Translations under genes and position numbers: made by a program | Part shown: in pieces, positions 3,381 through 30,673 of the stretch | Layout: every line of letters begins with the position of its first letter | How positions within the stretch are numbered: the stretch's first letter is position 1 | The notes under the pieces: model-generated | Told to the model about the DNA's origin: nothing | Seen by the model: only the letters and a program-made list of their open reading frames with translations | Database searches by the model: none | Assembly: GCF_000091665.1 (NCBI RefSeq) | Contig: NC_000909.1 | Location: 593,581 to 625,580 of the forward strand | DNA length: 32,000 bases | Direction: 5' to 3' | From: Methanocaldococcus jannaschii DSM 2661 | GTDB lineage: Archaea; AGJL01; Methanococci; Methanococcales; Methanocaldococcaceae

Positions 3381-4079
<699 letters not shown>

Positions 4080-4111: not shown

Positions 4112-5410
4112 TTATAGATAAAGAATGGAATATAGAGTTATTACAGCTGCAGATAGTATTGATAAAATCATCCCAATTTTCATCATTTCTTCTTTTTTGA
4201 CACCTTCACTATATACAATAGCGTTGGGAGGAGTCCCTACTGGCAGAATAAAAGAGCACGATGCTGACATACCAACAGCCAGTATTAAAATCTCTTTTGG
4301 AATTCCTAAAGATACTCCAAATAGTATTGGGACTATTATTCCAGTCAATCCAGTGTTGCTTATAAAATTAGTTAGAATTATTGTTATTGTAACTACTAAA
4401 AATAAAAGAACAATTGGAGTTAAATTTCCTAAGATAGCTATAAGTTTTTCAGATAAGAATGTATTTGCTCCACTCTTAACAATAACTCCTCCCAAACATA
4501 AAGCTCCACCAAATAAAATTAAAGTTCCCCAATCTATTTTCTTAAAATCATTAACTTCAACTAAATTAAATACAAACAATAAAATTATGGCGAATATGGC
4601 AATAACTGAATCAAAATATTGGACATTAAAAATTTCACTCAAATAGTCGCTAATTATCCAAAGTGAAGCTATTAACACAAATATGACCAATAATTTATAA
4701 GCGTTTCTACTCAACTCCATTCTTGCTTGAATAGCAATATCTTCTTTTGGAATCCACTTTTTAAAGTAAATATATAATGTTAAAGTACAAATCAAAAATA
4801 ACAATAAACTTATTGGAAATCCCACTTTAAACCAGCTAAAAAATCCATAATCTAGATAGCTACTTGCTATGGCATTTGGTGGAGAGCCGATAATTGTTGC
4901 TATTCCTCCTATAGAGGCAGAATAAGCAACTCCTAACAATAAAAAATCTCTCAATTTACCAGTTTTTTTATGTAATAGACCAAGAGCTATGGGCAACAAA
5001 ATTAATGTGGCAGAGGTGTTACTAATCCACATTGATAGAAAATAAGCCGATAGAAACATTAAAAAACATGTAGTTTTAAAATCCTTTCCATAATTTAGTA
5101 GCTTATAGGCAATAAATTTATCTAAGTTATGATTTTTTAATGCCTGTGCAAGCATAAATCCTCCCAAAAACAAAAATATTATTGGATGGGCAAAGTATGT
5201 TAAAGCCTCTTTTAAATTAAAAATTCCTAAAAACACTGCCATTATTGGTATTGCTAAGGATGTAACTGGAAGAGGCAATAATTCAAAAAACCATAAACAT
5301 CCAGCAACTATTAATATAACAATACCTTTGTATATATCTGGTAAAGATGAGCCAAAAATAAGAGAAGCTGTAATTATCCCTAAGCCTATAAATTCTTTGG
5401 ATAATCTCAT
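4112..5410 (-). CDS. Ion-transporter-superfamily permease (SLC13/DASS or ArsB/NhaD-like anion:Na+ symporter)
   Basis: 432 aa, hydrophobic throughout. Two re-entrant-loop-type motifs (GSPPNAIA and GTPPNAIV) lie in the two halves, consistent with an inverted-repeat transporter. Confidence 0.6.
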   Translation of the reverse strand: MRLSKEFIGLGIITASLIFGSSLPDIYKGIVILIVAGCLWFFELLPLPVTSLAIPIMAVFLGIFNLKEALTYFAHPIIFLFLGGFMLAQALKNHNLDKFIAYKLLNYGKDFKTTCFLMFLSAYFLSMWISNTSATLILLPIALGLLHKKTGKLRDFLLLGVAYSASIGGIATIIGSPPNAIASSYLDYGFFSWFKVGFPISLLLFLICTLTLYIYFKKWIPKEDIAIQARMELSRNAYKLLVIFVLIASLWIISDYLSEIFNVQYFDSVIAIFAIILLFVFNLVEVNDFKKIDWGTLILFGGALCLGGVIVKSGANTFLSEKLIAILGNLTPIVLLFLVVTITIILTNFISNTGLTGIIVPILFGVSLGIPKEILILAVGMSASCSFILPVGTPPNAIVYSEGVKKEEMMKIGMILSILSAAVITLYSILYL

Positions 5411-8344: not shown

Positions 8345-8378
8345 TATTTCACCAAAATAAGGAAAATATTACAGAAGA

Positions 8379-8445
8379 TTAACAGACCCTTGGTATTGGG
8401 TCTCCAATCGGCATATCGACAATTCTCCTACCAACAATATGTCTC
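8379..8445 (-). repeat. Displaced duplicate of the last 19 codons plus stop of hypE (non-translated copy)
   Basis: 8379-8438 aligns without gaps to 8501-8560 at 50/60 identity. It translates to the identical peptide IVGRRIVDMPIGDPIPRVC*. Homology seems to continue about 6 nt further (gtctc) across a 1-nt indel. Confidence 0.9.
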
Positions 8446-8500
8446 GCATGAAACTTTTAGAAAAGTTTCATCAAAACTTTTAAAAATTGCATTATGAATA
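8446..8500 (-). repeat. Family-A palindromic element (short version) between the two hypE 3' end copies
   Basis: Contains the hairpin atgaaactttt-ag-aaaagtttcat (8448-8471) and the conserved core gaaacttttag.aaaagtttcatcaaaac. The same core occurs at 23552-23580 and 25450-25478, and inverted at 25549-25577. Confidence 0.85.
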
Positions 8501-9508
8501 TTAACAAACTCTTGGTATCGGATCGCCAATAGGCATATCCACTATCCTTCTACCAACAATCGTCTCTATTATAACTCCCTTATGTTCTTTTGTAGCATAG
8601 CCAATGATTTCAGCATTCTTTCCTAATGGATGCTCCCTTAAAATCTCTAAGCATCTTTCAGCATCTTCCTTTTTAACTGCCATAACTACCTTTCCTTCAT
8701 TTGCTATAGTTAAAGGGTCTAAGCCAAGAATATCACAAATTGATTGAACTTCATCACTTATTGGGATTTTATCCTCAAATATAGTTATGCCAATATTACT
8801 CTTTTCAGCCATCTCATTTAACGCATCTGCCAAACCTCCTCTTGTAGGGTCTTTCATGGCATTTATTTGAATGCCCTCTTCTAAAACCCTCTCAATTAAT
8901 TTATTTATTGGAGCTACATCTGATTTTATGTTTGTTTCAAAATCAAATCCCTCCCTTGATAATAAAATAGCTAATCCATGCTCTCCTATATTTCCAGAAA
9001 CAATTATTGCATCTCCCTCTTGAACATTACAATCCCTTATTGCCTTTCCCCTATCAACAATCCCTATTCCAGCAGTTGAGATTATGATATCATCAACTCC
9101 ATCAGATACCTTTGTATCTCCTGTTATTATTGCTACTTCAGCCTCTTTAGAAGTTTCGTTTATTGATTTAACTATTTTCTCCAAATCTTCTAAGTTAAAA
9201 CCTTCTGGAATTATTAAAGATAGAGATAGAGCTAATGGCTTAGCTCCCATAACTGCTAAATCATTTACAGTTCCACTAACAGCCAATCTTCCAATATCTC
9301 CACCTGGGAAGAATATTGGTTTAACTGTGTGTCCATCAACAGTAAAAACAATCTCCTTATCACCTATTGGGATAGTTGCTGAATCATCCAAGCTTTCTAA
9401 GCCAATTCCTCCATTAACTGATGTTATCTCCAAATTTTTCAATATTACATCTTTTATAAGCTCCTGCATTACCTTTCCTCCAGCTCCATGCATTCGTGTG
9501 ATTTTCAT
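8501..9508 (-). CDS. hypE: [NiFe]-hydrogenase maturation protein HypE
   Basis: AIR-synthase-like/PurM fold sequence (HGAGGK.., GDTKV, DPTRGG) and the diagnostic C-terminal PRVC. Confidence 0.95.
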   Translation of the reverse strand: MKITRMHGAGGKVMQELIKDVILKNLEITSVNGGIGLESLDDSATIPIGDKEIVFTVDGHTVKPIFFPGGDIGRLAVSGTVNDLAVMGAKPLALSLSLIIPEGFNLEDLEKIVKSINETSKEAEVAIITGDTKVSDGVDDIIISTAGIGIVDRGKAIRDCNVQEGDAIIVSGNIGEHGLAILLSREGFDFETNIKSDVAPINKLIERVLEEGIQINAMKDPTRGGLADALNEMAEKSNIGITIFEDKIPISDEVQSICDILGLDPLTIANEGKVVMAVKKEDAERCLEILREHPLGKNAEIIGYATKEHKGVIIETIVGRRIVDMPIGDPIPRVC

Positions 9509-14402: not shown

Positions 14403-17309
14403 TTATCCTTTAATAACTCCTAATGGTCTCATTCTTGCTACTTTTAATGATATTCCAGCTTTATGACATGTATCTGCGACTAAATCAACACTCTTATATG
14501 CCTCTGGTGCTTCCTCTGCCATAACTGCCTTTGAATCACTCATGGCAACGATTCCCATCTCTGCCAATCTTCTTTGTATCTCTTTACCCTTCCACAACTT
14601 TAATGCCTTAGCCCTACTTAGCTTTCTACCGGCTCCATGTGCCGTTGAACCAAACGTCTCTTTCATAGCAATCTCTGTCCCTCTCATTAAGTAAGAGGCG
14701 GTTCCCATATCTCCAGGAATAATAACCGGCTGTCCAACACTCCAATATTCTTTTGGAATTGCCTCATGCTTTGGTGGGAATGCCCTTGTAGCTCCTTTTC
14801 TATGCACTATAACTTTTACCTTCCTTCCATCTATTATGTGTTCTTCTTTCTTAGCTATGTTGTGGGCTACATCATAGACAATATTCATCTCTAAATCCTC
14901 AGCATGTATTTTAAATACTTCTTCAAAGCTCTCTCTAACCCAGTGAGTAATCATCTGTCTATTTGCCCATGCATAGTTTGCTCCACAGCACATTGCTTTA
15001 AAGTAACTCTGCCCTTCTTCTGATTCAAATGGAGCACATGCCAACTGTCTATCTGGAAGTTTTATTCCATAGTTTTTGGCTGCTTTTTCCATAATTCTTA
15101 AATAATCAGTACAGATTTGATGCCCTAAACCTCTTGAACCGGTGTGCACTAAAACAACAACTTGATTTTCCTCTATTCCATATATTTCAGCAGCTTCCTC
15201 ATCAAATACCTTTTCAACATACTGCACTTCTAAGAAGTGGTTTCCACTTCCTAAACTTCCTAATTGAACTCTTCCTCTCTCTTTTGCTTTATCTGAGACA
15301 TAGGAAGCATCTGCATCTTTTAAACAGCCATGTTCTTCAATAAACTCTAAATCTTCCTTCCATCCATAACCCTCTTTAACAGCCCATCTAACTCCTTCCT
15401 CTAATACATCATCCATAACACTTTTGCTGAATTTTAAAATTCCCTTACTTCCCAAACCAGAAGGGACATTTTTGAATAAGGTTTTTATAAGCTCTTTTAT
15501 CTTTGATTGAACTTCTTCTTTTGTTAAATTTGTTCTTATAAGCCTAACTCCACAGTTATGGACAACTATGCTATTTGCTATGAAGTTGTGTTCTTTGCTT
15601 ACTATTCCAACATCATACAATTTTGAATCATAAGAAATTTCTTCAATCTCCTTTATCTTGTCTATTACAAATCCTCCAATAACCCCATATTTTTCAATAA
15701 ATTCCTCAAACTTTGGGAATTTTGTTGAAATTCTTACATCATCTTCATCCAAGTTTTCATATACTGCCCTCTCAATTAATCTTTTGCTTATAAACTCATT
15801 TCTAAATTCATCCATCTTTAACATTTCTGAGACTGTTACTCCTTTTTTATAAAGTTCTTTTGCTCTTTTAATACATTTTTTTCTAATTTCTTTTGCAATA
15901 TCCTTCCTTCTTAAGTATTCATAAGCCAACAATCCAATAACTTTTTTCTCCCCTGAATATTCATAGTTTATTCTTCCTAAGAAGTTCTTTATGCTCTCTT
16001 CCCCAACAATTGCCAGTCTGTATGAAACTCTACCATCTAAAGATTTTATCTCATAAATCATACTTTCAATGTCAAACTCAGCCAATAATAGCTTAATTTC
16101 ATTTAAAAACTCTAAGATATTTTCTTTTAGCTCTTCACTCTTTGACATCGTTAAGTTTATTGGTAATGGTGTGTAGTTTTTAAACACTGCCCTACTTCCA
16201 TCAGCTCCAAACAATCCAGCTAAGAAGTTTCTCTTTACCCATTTTGGAGCTTTCTTTATCCACTCTGGGATTTTGTATATCTGCTCTGTCTTTTTACCAA
16301 TTGGCATTCCCAATTTATGCATGAACAATGCAAATGCCTTTGAAGTTATTTTTATAGAGTTGTCTTCACACAAGCTTGTATATTCATCTCCGTAGGCATT
16401 TCTTATCTCAACTTCCCTCTTCCTTGAATATATTCTTGAAGCTTTTATTCCTAATTTCTCTAAATCTTCTCTAATTTTAATAAGCGTCTCTCTCTTTCCA
16501 TAAAATGCCACATACAACCTCTCTCTATCCCCATTCTCTTTAACTATACTTCCATCTCCAAATGCAAAACCTAACAATCTTGCAATAATACCAATATTTT
16601 TGTTGTCCATTCTAAGTGGTAATAACCCTCTATCTTTTAGATATTTGATAATCTGTTTATCATACTCTGCAAAATCATCCTCATCTAATATTATCTCATC
16701 AGACGGTTCTTCATATTCAACCCCTTCATAAGGATAAACTATTACATCATCCCCTTCTTTTAACATGCCCATTGGTACATAACCGTTTAATGTTAAAACT
16801 GGATGGTCTTTACTTCCCTCTAAAACTCTTCCAGATTCTGTTTTTATCCTTATTATCTTCTCATCTGCATATCTTTCAGAGACAAACAATATGTTTGAAC
16901 TCTTTTCTCCCTCCTCTGTATTATAAATCTTAATATGTAAATCCAATTTTTCTTTTAGTTTTTCCAATTTTATGTAATATCCATCATCCGTTAATATTTT
17001 TGAGTTTGATGTAAGGCAGTTGATATCAAAACCAACCCCTCCAGGGCTTATAACTCCTTCTCTTTGGTCAAAAGCCGCTACCCCGCCAATCGCGAACCCA
17101 TAACCGTAATGCACATCAGGCATAGCTATAGAATACTTATAAATCCCAGGCAAGCATGCAACGTTCGCTATTTGTTCTAAAACCTCTGGTTCTAACTCAT
17201 CTAATAGGATTTCGTTTAAGTAGATTCTTCCAGGAACTCTCATGCAATCTTTGTAATCCTTAGGTAATTCCCATACTACATCGGAGACCCTTTTTAATAC
17301 ATCTTTCAT
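14403..17309 (-). CDS. rtcB: RNA-splicing ligase RtcB, interrupted by an intein (968-aa precursor, about 480-aa mature)
   Basis: RtcB motifs lie on both sides of the insert ([17 protein letters not shown] | [26 protein letters not shown]). Removing residues 98-585 restores the conserved GFDINCGVR junction. Confidence 0.97.
15555..17018 (-). mobile_element. Intein with LAGLIDADG homing-endonuclease domain (488 aa) inside rtcB
   Basis: Starts at Cys98 (CLTSNSKIL) and ends VVHN, followed by the +1 Cys. Block B-like SKDHPV. Two LAGLIDADG motifs ([23 protein letters not shown]). Codon positions were checked against the DNA (tgc at 17018-17016, aac at 15557-15555, tgt at 15554-15552). Confidence 0.93.
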
Positions 17310-23118: not shown

Positions 23119-23532
23119 ATGAATGTTAAGATAATAGTTGAGTTTATAAAAAAGTTCGCAGAAGAAAATAACTGTAAAAAAATAGCTGAGATTGGAATTG
23201 GATTTAAATTTGATGTTGCAAGAGAATTAAGTAAATATTTCGATTTGATAGCCATAGATATTAATGAAAAAGCTATTGAAAAAGCTAAATTGTTGGGATT
23301 AAATGCTTATAAAGATGATTTATTTAATCCAAATATAAGTTTATATAAAAATATTGATTTAATATATTCCATAAGACCTCCAAGAGATTTACAGCCGTAT
23401 ATTTTAGATTTATCAAAAAAAGTTAATGCAAATTTAATTATAAGACCTCTTTTGAATGAGATGCCAATAAAAGAGCTAAAACTAAAAAACTACAAAGGAG
23501 AAGTGTTTTATATAAAAGAAAAACAAATTTAA
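23119..23532 (+). CDS. UPF0146-family protein (methyltransferase-like Rossmann fold)
   Basis: IAEIGIGFKFDVA..IAIDIN..IYSIRPP resembles the conserved archaeal UPF0146 family. I prefer the start at 23119 (MNVKII) over 23089. Confidence 0.6.
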   Translation: MNVKIIVEFIKKFAEENNCKKIAEIGIGFKFDVARELSKYFDLIAIDINEKAIEKAKLLGLNAYKDDLFNPNISLYKNIDLIYSIRPPRDLQPYILDLSKKVNANLIIRPLLNEMPIKELKLKNYKGEVFYIKEKQI

Positions 23533-23551
23533 GCTTTTAATTTCTTCCTTC
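23529..23551 (-). repeat. Displaced duplicate of the last 6 codons plus stop of rpl39e
   Basis: ttaagcttttaatttcttccttc versus 23627-23649 ttaagccttcaatttcttccttc (21/23 identical). Both encode RKKLKA*. Both mismatches are at wobble positions. Confidence 0.8.
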
Positions 23552-23626
23552 GAAACTTTTAGTAAAAGTTTCATCAAAACTCGTCCATTAAGTTAGGGCT
23601 TTCAGCCCTAATTAATGTCCATTCAC
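23552..23626 (-). repeat. Family-A modular hairpin element (two modules) between the rpl39e 3' end copies
   Basis: Module 1 is gaaacttttagtaaaagtttcatcaaaac (23552-23580). Module 2 is the bulged hairpin ccattaagttagggct-ttc-agccctaattaatg. Module 2 recurs inverted at 29669-29706. Confidence 0.85.
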
Positions 23627-23785
23627 TTAAGCCTTCAATTTCTTCCTTCTCCAGTATCTCATTTTTGGGTGGAATCTAACTCTCCCTCTTGTTTTAACAA
23701 TGACAAACAATGGAACTCTTCTATTCTGCTTTAATGCTTTAGCCAATCTTACCTTCTTTCCTAATGGCTTGTTGCTTCCCATCAT
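23627..23785 (-). CDS. rpl39e: 50S ribosomal protein L39e (52 aa; absent from the ORF track because it is under 60 aa)
   Basis: My reverse-complement translation gives [58 protein letters not shown] Shine-Dalgarno site immediately upstream. The sequence is characteristic of L39e. Confidence 0.9.
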
Positions 23786-24730: not shown

Positions 24731-25177
24731 TTAGTATTTAGCAAGAGCAGGGATTTCATTAATTATTTCATCCCTAACCTCTTTAGCAATGTTGTCTAAG
24801 AAACTTCTTCCTTTTGGAGTAACAACTCTTCCCTCAGGTGTCTTTTCAACTAAACCTAATTTTTCTAATTCTTGTAAAGCTTTTCTAATGATGTTTCCAC
24901 TACCTTTGTAGAAGTGTTCTGGTTCATGACCTCTGTTTTTTCTTCCTCCGTAAGCAGTTCTTAATCTTGAAACACCTACTGGGCCGTAAATATAGATTTT
25001 TCTTAAGATTGATGCACACCTTATATACCACCAGTCATCTTGGTCTGGTCTTCTCTCTCTGCTAACTCCTGTCTTAACAAAATCTACCCATTCTGGAACT
25101 CCTATATTCATCTCTTTTAATTTCTCAGCTGTCTTCTGAATTAACTTATCAGCTGGAACATCATAGACAGTTACCAT
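24731..25177 (-). CDS. rps19e: 30S ribosomal protein S19e
   Basis: [20 protein letters not shown]..[19 protein letters not shown]..GGRKNRG is conserved S19e sequence. GAGGTG Shine-Dalgarno site upstream. Confidence 0.95.
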
Positions 25178-25425
25178 TTTTGCACCTCTCTTAATTATTT
25201 TTTAATTAATTTATTTTGATTTTCTTTCTAATCTATTTATTTTGTGTTTAAGATTATGAGTTTTTGTAGCATAAAATCTATTTAAGGATATGTAGTTTAA
25301 ACCAATAAAACAAGCTTAGTATTAATTTGATTAGGTTATATTTATATCTTATTATTATCGATAGATACATCTTTAGGTTTAAAATTTAACTCTATAAAAA
25401 AGAGAAGAGAGTTAAATATAAAAAA

Positions 25426-25449
25426 TGGAGCCGGGGGTGAAATTTAAAC
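25426..25449 (-). repeat. Displaced duplicate of the 3' 24 nt of tRNA-Cys (CCA, discriminator, acceptor 3' strand, part of the T arm)
   Basis: tggagccgggggtgaaatttaaac versus 25580-25603 tggagccgggggtgggatttgaac (21/24 identical; the three differences are G-to-A in the displaced copy). Confidence 0.85.
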
Positions 25450-25579
25450 GAAACTTTTAGTAAAAGTTTCATCAAAACGGATGCATTGCTTCCTAACGGA
25501 AGCAATGCCTCTTAATTTACACCTCCGAGCGTAAGCGAGGAGGTGTCAGATTTTGATGAAACTTTCTTAAAGTTTCAAA
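25450..25579 (-). repeat. Family-A element, full-length 130-nt version: two hairpin-forming terminal inverted repeats flanking two GC-rich hairpins
   Basis: Left TIR gaaacttttagtaaaagtttcatcaaaac (25450-25478). Right TIR gattttgatgaaactttcttaaagtttc (25549-25576/7). Internal hairpins are gcattgcttcc-taac-ggaagcaatgc and acacctcc-(12 nt)-ggaggtgt. Confidence 0.9.
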
Positions 25580-25654
25580 TGGAGCCGGGGGTGGGATTTG
25601 AACCCACGTAAGGCGGATCTGCAGTCCGCTGCCTAGCCCCTAGACTACCCCGGC
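25580..25654 (-). tRNA. tRNA-Cys (anticodon GCA), CCA encoded
   Basis: Manual cloverleaf: acceptor GCCGGGG/CCCCGGC, D stem GTCT/AGGC, anticodon stem GCGGA/TCCGC with loop CTGCAGA, variable loop CTTAC, T stem GTGGG/CCCAC with loop TTCAAAT, discriminator U73 (a tRNA-Cys identity element). 75 nt. Confidence 0.93.
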
Positions 25655-25717: not shown

Positions 25718-26335
25718 TTAACTTTTATAGTATTTGCTCCACAATATTCTTAAACATTCAATAACCATCCTTTTAGCAATCTCATCTAATGTATATGGTG
25801 TTATTGGCTCAAAATCTCTGATAAATTTCTCAGTTCCTACAACTATATGCCCCTCTTCATCTAAATTTAAAAATTTGGCTGGGCCTTTTGCATATTTGGC
25901 ATCACAAACCTTTATTTTTTCTTCTATACCAAATACCCCATTAGTTCCTATTGTTTTAATTCCTCTCTCTTTACAGTAGTTTATGATTGCCTTTGTTGTT
26001 GGGATTGTATCTCCACCAGCTATACATATCACTGCTACATCTCCCTTAATTAAATGAAGATTATCTTTAGTTATATTTTCTCTAAATGCCTCAACTCTAT
26101 TTCCAAAAAATCTCTTTATAAAATCTACTTTGTATTCCCCAACCTTTCCCCCTAATCTTCTATGGACAATATCATTTTCTTCTATTTTGGCATTATCAAA
26201 AACATAAACTTTTTCTACCCCACCTCTATGAACTTCTAATAAATCAAAAGCTACTCTAACACCCAATCTTCCGCATCCAATTATTGAAACTTCTCCTTTT
26301 GGCTTTAATTTTCTCTCCATCTCTTCAACGTTCAT
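25718..26335 (-). CDS. Rossmann-fold protein, ThiF/MoeB (E1-like) family-like
   Basis: VSIIGCGRLGVRVAFDL..VYVFDNAKIEENDIVHRRL resembles the E1-like GxGxxG / DxDxVExSNLxR pattern. I moved the start to 26335 (MNVEEMERK) because the track's first 36 codons lie inside the family-B repeat. Confidence 0.4.
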   Translation of the reverse strand: MNVEEMERKLKPKGEVSIIGCGRLGVRVAFDLLEVHRGGVEKVYVFDNAKIEENDIVHRRLGGKVGEYKVDFIKRFFGNRVEAFRENITKDNLHLIKGDVAVICIAGGDTIPTTKAIINYCKERGIKTIGTNGVFGIEEKIKVCDAKYAKGPAKFLNLDEEGHIVVGTEKFIRDFEPITPYTLDEIAKRMVIECLRILWSKYYKS

Positions 26336-26377
26336 AAATATCCCATCCAAACAGAACTTTTTTAGTAAGAAAGTATA

Positions 26378-26484
26378 ATAGTTTTTTGCAAAGTTATTAA
26401 AATTTATTAAGGAACATTGAACGCCTTCAAAGAAGGCGTTCATTATTATGCTTTACTAATATAAGACATTTTGCAAAAAACTAT
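26378..26484. repeat. Family-B palindromic element, second copy
   Basis: Perfect 15-bp TIRs atagttttttgcaaa (26378-26392) and tttgcaaaaaactat (26470-26484). Central hairpin tgaacgccttc-aaa-gaaggcgttca (26418-26442). Confidence 0.85.
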
Positions 26485-28965: not shown

Positions 28966-29658
28966 ATGGAAGACATTAAAATCAAAGAGATTTTTGAAAA
29001 CATCTATGAAGTTGATTTAGGAGATGGCTTAAAAAGAATAGCAACAAAATCTATTGTTAAGGGAAAAAAAGTATATGATGAAAAAATAATAAAAATTGGA
29101 GATGAAGAGTATAGAATTTGGAATCCAAATAAAAGTAAGTTGGCAGCTGCAATAATTAAAGGTTTAAAGGTTATGCCAATAAAAAGAGATTCAAAAATCT
29201 TATACTTAGGAGCTTCAGCTGGAACTACACCATCTCACGTTGCAGATATTGCTGATAAAGGCATTGTATATGCCATAGAGTATGCACCAAGGATTATGAG
29301 AGAGCTTTTAGATGCATGTGCTGAGAGGGAAAACATAATCCCAATTTTAGGAGATGCAAATAAACCTCAAGAATATGCAAATATTGTTGAAAAGGTAGAT
29401 GTTATCTATGAGGATGTTGCTCAGCCAAATCAAGCGGAGATTTTAATTAAAAATGCTAAGTGGTTTTTAAAGAAAGGCGGTTATGGAATGATAGCAATAA
29501 AGGCAAGGAGTATAGATGTTACAAAAGACCCAAAAGAGATTTTTAAAGAACAAAAAGAAATTTTAGAGGCAGGAGGTTTTAAAATAGTTGATGAGGTAGA
29601 TATTGAGCCGTTTGAAAAAGACCACGTCATGTTTGTAGGTATTTGGGAGGGAAAATAA
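28966..29658 (+). CDS. flpA: Fibrillarin-like rRNA/tRNA 2'-O-methyltransferase
   Basis: YRIWNPNKSKLAAAI, ILYLGASAGTTPSHVADI, VYAIEYAP, DVAQPNQAEI and IAIKARSIDVT are canonical fibrillarin. GGTGA Shine-Dalgarno site upstream. Confidence 0.97.
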   Translation: MEDIKIKEIFENIYEVDLGDGLKRIATKSIVKGKKVYDEKIIKIGDEEYRIWNPNKSKLAAAIIKGLKVMPIKRDSKILYLGASAGTTPSHVADIADKGIVYAIEYAPRIMRELLDACAERENIIPILGDANKPQEYANIVEKVDVIYEDVAQPNQAEILIKNAKWFLKKGGYGMIAIKARSIDVTKDPKEIFKEQKEILEAGGFKIVDEVDIEPFEKDHVMFVGIWEGK

Positions 29659-29742
29659 CATAAAATTGGACATTAATTGGGGCTAAAAGCCCCAACTTAA
29701 TGGACGGGAGGTATCCCAATAGGAGGTCTCCTCCTATGGTTG
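29659..29742 (+). repeat. Modular hairpin element between the two fibrillarin 3' end copies
   Basis: Hairpin 1 is cattaattggggct-aaa-agccccaacttaatg (the same module as at 23584-23620, inverted). Hairpin 2 is ataggagg-tct-cctcctat. Confidence 0.8.
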
Positions 29743-29786
29743 GAGAAAGACCACATATTATGTTTGTTGGAGTTTGGGAAGGATAA
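29743..29786 (+). repeat. Displaced, partly decayed duplicate of the last ~14 codons plus stop of fibrillarin
   Basis: gagaaagaccacatattatgtttgttggagtttgggaaggataa versus 29614-29658 gaaaaagaccacgtcatgtttgtaggtatttgggagggaaaataa. The terminal part reads MFVGVWEG* versus MFVGIWEGK*. There is a 2-nt insertion and a 3-nt deletion. Confidence 0.8.
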
Positions 29787-29840
29787 AGCTTTTTTAGATA
29801 AATTTAAAATTATTTTTTAGTAAAAATGTTTGGTGGGAAT

Positions 29841-30542: not shown

Positions 30543-30574
30543 GATGAAAATAGATTAGATATACAAAAACTTCG

Positions 30575-30673
30575 TTTCCATCCTCCAAGAGGTCTGATTT
30601 TAATCTCGGAGACATATTCGACCTATGGAGAGCAGACACTAACTTTCCATCCTCCAAGAGGTCTGATTTTAAT
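30575..30673 (-). CRISPR. Mini CRISPR array: two identical 30-nt repeats and one 39-nt spacer
   Basis: Repeats at 30575-30604 and 30644-30673. Their reverse complement is attaaaatcagacctcttggaggatggaaa, which resembles the Methanocaldococcus ATTAAAATCAGACC....GGAATGGAAA repeat type. Spacer 30605-30643 is ctcggagacatattcgacctatggagagcagacactaac. Orientation is inferred from the ATGGAAA(G/C) 3' handle. Confidence 0.85.

Follow-up and report, generated by a model that had tools for sequence, protein, structure and literature searches.

A hairpin block and a second tRNA 3' end behind tRNA-Cys

We analyzed a 32,000-nt stretch of the Methanocaldococcus jannaschii DSM 2661 genome (hereafter the window; all coordinates are window positions), in which a 130-nt block of hairpins lies directly behind the tRNA-Cys gene, at a site between MJ0692 and MJ0693. 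As seen in Table 1, the intact tRNA-Cys is followed on its own strand by the block, and the block by a second copy of the tRNA 3' end; here and at similar loci we call the in-gene copy X and the displaced copy X'. The tRNA itself is identical in M. bathoardescens, and its 3' part does not vary in the six sequences that we aligned (6/6). Its final 24-mer, TGGAGCCGGGGGTGGGATTTGAAC, has one further occurrence in the window, at 25426-25449 with three mismatches, where shuffled sequences are expected to give no match. All three differences in the displaced copy are G-to-A on the plus strand. The 21/24 identity reported in a first-pass annotation of this DNA, made from the sequence alone, was confirmed by repeat search and shuffling. 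With the TTT trailer included, the repeat is 27 nt long (24/27 identical). X' runs on into native downstream sequence; when M. jannaschii is compared with M. bathoardescens, 3 of its 24 positions differ. A permissive Rfam scan found no second tRNA-like match near the displaced copy, so this copy does not belong to a longer decayed tRNA pseudogene, the outcome that the first-pass annotation had named as fatal to its proposal.

The repeat search also recovered the terminal inverted repeats of about 28 nt, each itself a hairpin, and the GC-rich stems of 11 and 8 bp that had been described for the block. The terminal repeats have 15-nt perfect arms (25463-77 and 25551-65), extended outwards by 25450-63 and 25563-76 with 86% identity, and the two inner stems lie at 25483-93/25498-508 (11 bp) and 25519-26/25539-46 (8 bp). 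The predicted minimum-energy structure has the two terminal repeats paired with one another, giving one long outer stem and two inner hairpins (folding z-score of -11 as DNA, and of -9 as RNA with the tRNA included). The block is indeed GC-rich relative to its surroundings (37.7% versus 19-25% in the flanks), and by inspection, with no formal scan, we see no long open reading frame (ORF) in the 130 nt. Against Rfam 15, at gathering as well as permissive thresholds, the block has no match: only the tRNA passes, and the best other models stay far below their thresholds, reaching for example 18-22 bits where the cut-offs are 83-141. The block, which starts after CCA and TTT, has no predicted bulge-helix-bulge motif, and its predicted fold contains the long terminal-repeat helix.

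Table 1. Features of the tRNA-Cys locus, and members of the same repeat family and nearby direct repeats in the window (X, in-gene copy; X', displaced copy)
Feature	Position	Strand	Description
MJ0693	25718-26443		ORF
Intact tRNA-Cys(GCA)	25580-25654	minus	CCA encoded; ARAGORN; Rfam 57.6 bits
X of tRNA-Cys, functional copy	25577-25603	minus	tRNA G53 (T-loop start) to CCA, plus TTT trailer; repeat search
Inserted 130-nt block, two inverted repeat units	25450-25579	minus	Alignment, fold, GC; 25450-25576 if the TTT at 25577-25579 is assigned to the duplication
Unit 2 terminus	25551-25576	minus (tRNA strand)	Hairpin A GAAACTTTAAGAAAGTTTC 25558-25576, then ATCAAAA 25551-25557
Hairpin B of unit 2	25519-25546	minus	ACACCTCC..GGAGGTGT; 8-bp stem, 2x2 internal loop, 2 bp, tetraloop
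Hairpin C of unit 1	25480-25511	plus	GCATTGCTTCC-TAAC-GGAAGCAATGC; 11 bp, perfect
Unit 1 terminus	25450-25477	plus	Hairpin A GAAACTTTTAGTAAAAGTTTC 25450-25470, then ATCAAAA 25471-25477
X' of tRNA-Cys, displaced decaying copy	25423-25449	minus	GTTTAAATTTCACCCCCGGCTCCA plus TTT; repeat search and alignment
MJ0692	24731-25177		ORF, ribosomal protein S19e
L39e member, whole	23529-23649	minus	X 23627-23649 including stop codon; X' 23529-23551
L39e element	23552-23626		GC hairpin D, TTTTGAT, hairpin A
hypE member, whole	8374-8560	minus	X 8496-8560; X' 8374-8449
hypE element	8450-8495		Hairpin A at 8450-8469
Fibrillarin (MJ0697) member, whole	29614-29788	plus	X 29614-29658; X' 29743-29788
Fibrillarin element	29659-29742		Hairpin D and CCAATAGG..CCTATGG hairpin, without hairpin A
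Repeat pair, hypE 3' end	8374 / 8496		65 nt (76 with decayed junction end)
Repeat pair, L39e 3' end	23529 / 23627		23 nt
Repeat pair, tRNA-Cys 3' end	25423 / 25577		27 nt
Repeat pair, fibrillarin 3' end	29629 / 29760		24 nt by the direct-repeat scan (42 nt by another comparison, annotated 45)
Repeat pair, CRISPR repeats	30575 / 30644		30 nt
Two other repeat pairs			18 nt each; within coding sequence, chance level

The block as a pair of dispersed repeat units

The 130-nt block is made of a repeat unit, about 65 nt long, that is present twice, each copy consisting of a terminal hairpin A (GAAACTTT-loop-AAAGTTTC), the motif ATCAAAA and a GC-rich hairpin. The two units stand head to head: unit 1 reads A then C on the plus strand and unit 2 reads A then B on the minus strand, and the outer end of unit 1 adjoins the displaced tRNA-Cys copy. 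Hairpin A with ATCAAAA is found at four sites in the window, compared with 0.9 expected, and in nine other Methanocaldococcus loci, including strains 28A and 16A and several metagenome-assembled genomes. For the unit 1 terminus, we found an identical 29 nt at 23552-23580 and a near-identical copy at 8450-8477; for the unit 2 terminus, 25-28 identical nt are present in L041, L059, L064, L068 and L083 (L numbers denote the loci compared with the window). The order of modules recurs as well, with hairpin A followed by hairpin B in L041 and L059, by hairpin C in L064 and by a variant of C in L110. By this comparison, the block is not unique but a paired form of a multi-copy unit. Terminal inverted repeats are found at tRNA-Cys, with arms of about 28 nt, and also in L045 and L012; the copies at L39e, hypE and fibrillarin have one hairpin A or none. 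The bases beside the hairpin-A terminus vary between copies.

We note two features of hairpin B. One strand has the sequence CC-GA-GC-GNRA-GC-GA-GG, in which tandem G-A pairs sit under a GNRA loop, and the inner asymmetric part of the hairpin is inverted between the copy in the window (25519-25546) and that in L041 (~2596-2625).

Several known origins were tried for the block and rejected. ATCAAAATCTGAC resembles, by eye, ATTAAAATCAGAC of the local CRISPR repeat, but in permutation-tested local alignments no unit exceeded a z-score of 2.5. A plasmid or virus origin was not supported by BLAST of the element and its flanking repeats against plasmid and phage collections, which gave no match. UGAUGA on the reverse of hairpin A suggested a box C/D or K-turn motif, which has no partner box and no Rfam hit; a hammerhead ribozyme has no Rfam hit either, and IS91/Helitron-like targeting of GTTC does not agree with junction bases that vary. 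As a separate observation, the element behind tRNA-Val in L004 holds a lone GTTCCAATAGAGCAGAGTTCTATGGAAAT (~2969-2997) that resembles a Methanocaldococcus CRISPR repeat.

Insertion at tRNA-Cys

Aligning the MJ0693-S19e spacer across species, we were able to identify filled and empty versions of the tRNA-Cys site. The same element and the displaced copy are present in both M. jannaschii and M. bathoardescens. The site is uninterrupted in FS406-22 and in M. fervens, where ...GGCTCCA is followed by a T-run and the native spacer; these are the empty sites that the first-pass annotation had proposed to look for in relatives. According to the species alignment, which shows an insertion, the inserted stretch comprises exactly the element and a single repeat copy. 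By pairwise identity, M. jannaschii groups with M. bathoardescens (93-94%), with M. fervens (88-89%) and M. vulcanius (79-81%) outside; the identities support the branching order ((Mj, Mbatho), FS406, Mferv), Mvulc. On this evidence the block entered the tRNA-Cys locus in the ancestor shared by M. jannaschii and M. bathoardescens, for which a single gain suffices. The duplicated target is about 24-27 bp, from the T-loop to just beyond CCA; the upstream copy, which continues the gene, leaves tRNA-Cys whole, and the downstream copy is a displaced dead remnant that decays by C-to-T changes.

We also note that M. jannaschii contigs from short-read metagenomes and from Logan (L002, L136-L142) terminate inside or beside the element, as expected of a dispersed repeat that breaks assemblies.

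Gene-end duplications at protein-coding genes

To place the tRNA-Cys duplication among other repeats, the window was scanned systematically for nearby direct repeats (shuffles give about one pair of at least 18 nt). The pairs obtained are included in Table 1. Four of them lie at gene ends (hypE, L39e, tRNA-Cys and fibrillarin), and all four have the same layout, in which the upstream copy is the 3' end of the gene, followed by a hairpin element and then by the displaced copy. In 4/4 of these cases the outer edge of the upstream copy lies 0-5 nt beyond the stop codon or CCA, and the displaced copies at L39e, hypE and fibrillarin still encode the same or nearly the same peptide. Flanking duplication is a property of the family that is not specific to tRNA.

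At L39e, the insertion is found in four species, M. vulcanius and L130 have an empty site, and the differences between X and X' are synonymous. The stop codon of the convergent UPF0146 gene falls inside the displaced L39e copy (23529-23532), so that this insertion has reshaped the 3' end of UPF0146. Other blocks are nested in the 5' arm of hairpin A at this locus: a two-hairpin block of ~45-50 nt in M. fervens (L143 ~5110-5184) and FS406-22 (L144 ~5076-5151), and four hairpins at the same place in L182.

At hypE, both X and X' encode IVGRRIVDMPIGDPIPRVC followed by the stop codon, and within the 65-nt ungapped repeat all 11 of the 11 differences are synonymous (10 in codons and one after the stop codon), a pattern that neutral decay of a duplicate cannot give. 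Compared with L177, a relative whose site is empty, X' has 4 differences in 60 nt and X has 9, and X has 8-10 differences from every lineage sampled. X' is contiguous with native downstream DNA. Since X' is closer than X to L177, the in-gene end is probably the newer copy, as integrative elements behave. Similarly, in L059 (strain 16A) the in-gene end is the allele of strain 28A over a mismatch-free tract of 168 nt, in which about 5 mismatches are expected. Decay of the displaced copies is concentrated in the few bases beside hairpin A. The vulcanius-like contig L175 has the hairpin A of M. jannaschii at hypE, which places the insertion allele in more than one lineage. In protein-coding genes, nearly all differences between the two copies are synonymous, and the resemblance of the displaced copies to native ends suggests that insertion alleles also spread by homologous recombination. 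We rejected the idea that the hypE displaced copy is the remnant of a paralogue, the neighboring genes being unrelated to hypE.

Presence/absence polymorphism at orthologous sites is thus found at tRNA-Cys, L39e and hypE. In vent metagenomes, the hypE 3' end is empty in 11 of 16 contigs; other hypE 3' ends have been filled independently in at least four lineages, with distinct sets of modules and distinct X' lengths.

Two further features of the window are a two-repeat CRISPR-DR39 mini-array followed by a long AT-rich stretch (30574-30673), and an RtcB tRNA-splicing ligase gene split by an intein with a LAGLIDADG endonuclease domain (14403-17309, minus strand).

Copies in other archaea

Duplications beside the element were also found outside the window, in other Methanocaldococcus and in DPANN archaea. 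They measure 32 nt at tRNA-Val in L004, where the duplication starts at G53 as at tRNA-Cys, 39 nt in L059, 27 nt in L064 (in a 5' untranslated region) and 55 nt in L068. Among DPANN and methanogen loci, L078 has the 3' part of a tRNA duplicated (20/20), L114 and L076 have the 5' ends of tRNAs duplicated, and L030 and L116 are further cases. What is duplicated is the local sequence, and the length differs at every locus, with an overall range of 13-76 nt. Three independent tRNAs (tRNA-Cys, L004 and L078) have their interior junction where the T-loop begins, which suggests a structural preference.

The hairpin-A unit is found in Methanococcales, Methanobacteriales and many DPANN lineages; look-alikes of the partner hairpins were seen at single loci only (B in L045, D in L078, where hairpin A is paired with a GGGGCTGAAAGCCCC hairpin resembling module D). 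In DPANN archaea, hairpin A with AUCAAAA lies inside intron-containing tRNA genes in 6 of the 18 loci examined, where it forms the distal helix of the intron (L008, L013, L022, L034, L075 and L095, from Micrarchaeota, Woesearchaeota and related archaea). In L045 and L072, hairpin A stands directly after tRNA 3' ends, and tandem arrays are also seen in DPANN. The Iainarchaeum locus L045 (468-597) carries a 130-nt hairpin-A doublet directly after tRNA-Gly, the inner hairpin of which resembles hairpin B. In L012 (6127-6754), two inverted hairpin-A units lie on either side of a hicB-hicA toxin-antitoxin pair, an arrangement that resembles the empty 130-nt doublet with cargo added. As a side observation, L081 has hairpin A with AUCAAAA in a tRNA that lies within an rRNA spacer.

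Pattern matches in bacteria (Defluviitaleaceae and others) and in giant viruses come without partner hairpins or tRNA context and were set aside as coincidental AT-rich palindromes. One giant-virus hairpin-A pair flanks the major capsid gene, and the bacterial copies look like multi-copy intergenic hairpins.

Comparison with known systems

M. jannaschii reportedly has three palindromic repeats, MJRE1-3, of about 100 bp each. MJRE1-3 and the present element share the organism, and are short, palindromic, non-coding, multi-copy and mostly intergenic. The present element is probably one of the MJRE repeats, whose reported description it matches. The MJRE palindromic repeats of M. jannaschii (Suyama, Lathe & Bork 2005) are cited in PMC2229807 and PMC2996958, neither of which mentions gene-end duplications, tRNA targeting or a DPANN distribution, and the repeats are not mentioned in the M. 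jannaschii promoter papers that we consulted. A full-text literature search for the motif returned only unrelated primers. As far as we checked, the gene-end duplicating habit of this small palindromic repeat family is previously unremarked.

Miniature transposable elements with inverted repeats (MITEs), REPINs and Correia-type repeats resemble the present element in being non-coding, hairpin-forming and multi-copy, with insertion polymorphism and with doublets of inverted units, and the hicAB version in L012, which has the same ends, is comparable to mobile insertion cassettes. The present element differs from these repeats in that its duplications are variable (13-76 bp) instead of fixed at 2-10 bp, and in that many copies have only one defined hairpin terminus. 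Compared with MITEs in particular, the short size, lack of coding sequence, multiple copies and presence/absence polymorphism are all found here, whereas a short target-site duplication of fixed length is not. To our knowledge, the present element has no cognate transposase or RAYT. Unlike REPIN/RAYT or IS200/IS605 systems, the present case has no Y1 transposase or TnpB in the window, has long duplications, and shows no fixed motif beside hairpin A. Target duplications much longer than usual occur with insertion sequences of the IS1634 type (direct repeats that are long and variable), with casposons and with CRISPR spacer integration; these systems are protein-encoded and have defined ends, unlike the present element. 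Archaeal bulge-helix-bulge introns are similar in that hairpin A with AUCAAAA makes up the distal helix of DPANN tRNA introns, but the M. jannaschii element sits after the tRNA and not inside it. A diversity-generating retroelement was considered in view of the A-for-G differences at tRNA-Cys, and was rejected since the hypE differences are of mixed type. We know of no reverse transcriptase in M. jannaschii.

A probable mobile hairpin repeat and its alternatives

Taking these observations together, we think that the 130-nt block is fairly likely to be a non-coding, non-autonomous hairpin repeat, similar to MITEs or to repetitive extragenic palindromic (REP) sequences, which inserts with long target duplications of variable length. 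Primary insertion would make two identical copies of the target. From the duplication lengths of 13-76 bp we infer cuts or priming at variable spacing, since these lengths argue against a transposase with a fixed stagger and against a one-site integrase. Selection would then keep only those insertions whose duplication spans the gene end. Insertion alleles would subsequently pass between lineages by ordinary homologous recombination. One crossover would fall within the gene and a second one in X' or downstream, so that the displaced copy would mostly be the former functional end of the recipient; such transfer would explain why the in-gene and displaced ends differ at synonymous sites only. 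Co-transcription of the element as a tRNA trailer is probable, given that the TTT after CCA is all that separates them and read-through is likely, and the element may be retained through stable 3' hairpins that are useful or self-maintaining.

Several points weigh against this account. Known transposases make target duplications of fixed size, and the 13-76 bp seen here fall far outside these; some copies (L045, L012) lack a duplication, and most elements show no conserved terminus at their left boundary. The case for mobility is a comparative one, built on sequences, and the equation with the MJRE repeats is no more than probable. At tRNA-Cys itself, M. vulcanius and its relatives carry TTTGAAGTTTTAAGAAATTTTAC directly after the CCA (L129-L132, ~3826-3850). 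Read from the TTT after CCA, it matches hairpin A at 18 of 23 positions and at the same offset; it is a look-alike of a decayed hairpin A and may be the relic of an older insertion. The site may thus have had an earlier occupant that some lineages lost precisely. It may have taken more than one insertion, or the repeats may have allowed the element to be lost precisely. Finally, M. jannaschii and M. bathoardescens share 98.4% identity over the element (25450-25579 versus L145 3255-3383), compared with 87.5% for the displaced tRNA-Cys copy and 89.1% for the downstream spacer. This is beyond what selfish DNA alone explains, and indicates constraint, self-correction of the palindrome, or homogenization.

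The conservation lends indirect support to the first-pass suggestion that the block may be a stable structured RNA. It is also an argument for the alternative that the block is a 3' module of use to the host (a terminator, a protector of RNA 3' ends, or a stable small RNA derived from the trailer) that is kept by selection, the duplication being incidental. The GC content and strong structure of the block (z of -9 to -11), its position directly behind gene ends at four loci, the likely read-through from the tRNA, and a terminator scan that selects hairpin C with the T-rich tail after it would all suit such a module. No module of this kind exists at the tRNA-Cys locus of M. fervens and FS406-22, however, and the same gene carries different modules in different lineages. 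Copies of hairpin B differ in the orientation of their inner part, which means that no single strand is conserved, and Rfam offers no match. We regard a host module as an unlikely explanation of the locus.

Somewhat less likely still is integration into tRNA-Cys by an integrase, with true attL and attR: a virus or plasmid with an attP that mimics the tRNA 3' end would have entered at the T-loop, and the integrated DNA would later have been deleted internally, so that the 130 nt are a remnant (or, in a variant of this scenario, a cis-mobilizable mini-element moved by an integrase encoded elsewhere). The layout is the classical one, with an intact gene end, an insert and a displaced copy contiguous with native downstream DNA; the crossover region would begin at the T-loop (G53), as in the L004 tRNA-Val and in L078, and at hypE and L059 the replacement end appears to have been imported with the insert. 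To this extent the first-pass annotation, which saw in the locus the footprint of an integrase acting on tRNA genes, described the insertion geometry correctly. Its tRNA-specific part did not hold, because the same layout, with shared modules and with repeats of 13-76 nt, is found at many targets that are unrelated to each other, protein-coding genes among them (L39e, fibrillarin, hypE, tRNA-Val and others), where att-type integration has one specific attachment site; an integrase would need a different attP for each. The inserts of 57-130 nt bring no integrase with them. Among the 20 window ORFs scanned against Pfam, we found no integrase, transposase, HUH protein, Y1 transposase or TnpB, so that the integrase or HUH transposase envisaged earlier is not encoded among them. 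The element also lacks a match in plasmid or phage collections, and the block consists of two copies of a dispersed repeat unit instead of two unrelated element ends.

It is highly improbable that the displaced copy is what remains of a second tRNA-Cys gene, duplicated in tandem or decayed, with no relation to the hairpin block: the 24-nt copy is tRNA-derived and decays by transitions, but nothing tRNA-like lies upstream of it, hairpin A adjoins it directly, it comes and goes across species together with the element, and protein-coding gene ends show the same pattern.

A broader proposal goes beyond the mobile hairpin repeat at tRNA-Cys and is, in our judgment, doubtful at present: hairpin A and its partner hairpins might be the ends of a previously unrecognized mobile-element family that extends across several archaeal lineages, and a landing in a tRNA gene might survive as a bulge-helix-bulge intron.

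Significance

A non-coding repeat of 130 nt can yield a tRNA 3' duplication that resembles the scar of an integrase, which affects the calling of genomic islands and att sites in archaea. Displaced gene ends of 13-76 bp fit no known transposase geometry and indicate that hyperthermophilic and DPANN archaea have a route of insertion not yet described. Where the in-gene and displaced ends differ by synonymous changes only, they provide a built-in record of recombination between Methanocaldococcus lineages. With hairpin A as the core of DPANN tRNA introns, the origin of archaeal tRNA introns becomes testable by comparative genomics. The finding would be of greater interest if the family truly spans several archaeal lineages and the link to tRNA introns holds; if the broader proposal is true, one insertion mechanism would link small palindromic repeats, gene-end duplications and some archaeal tRNA introns.

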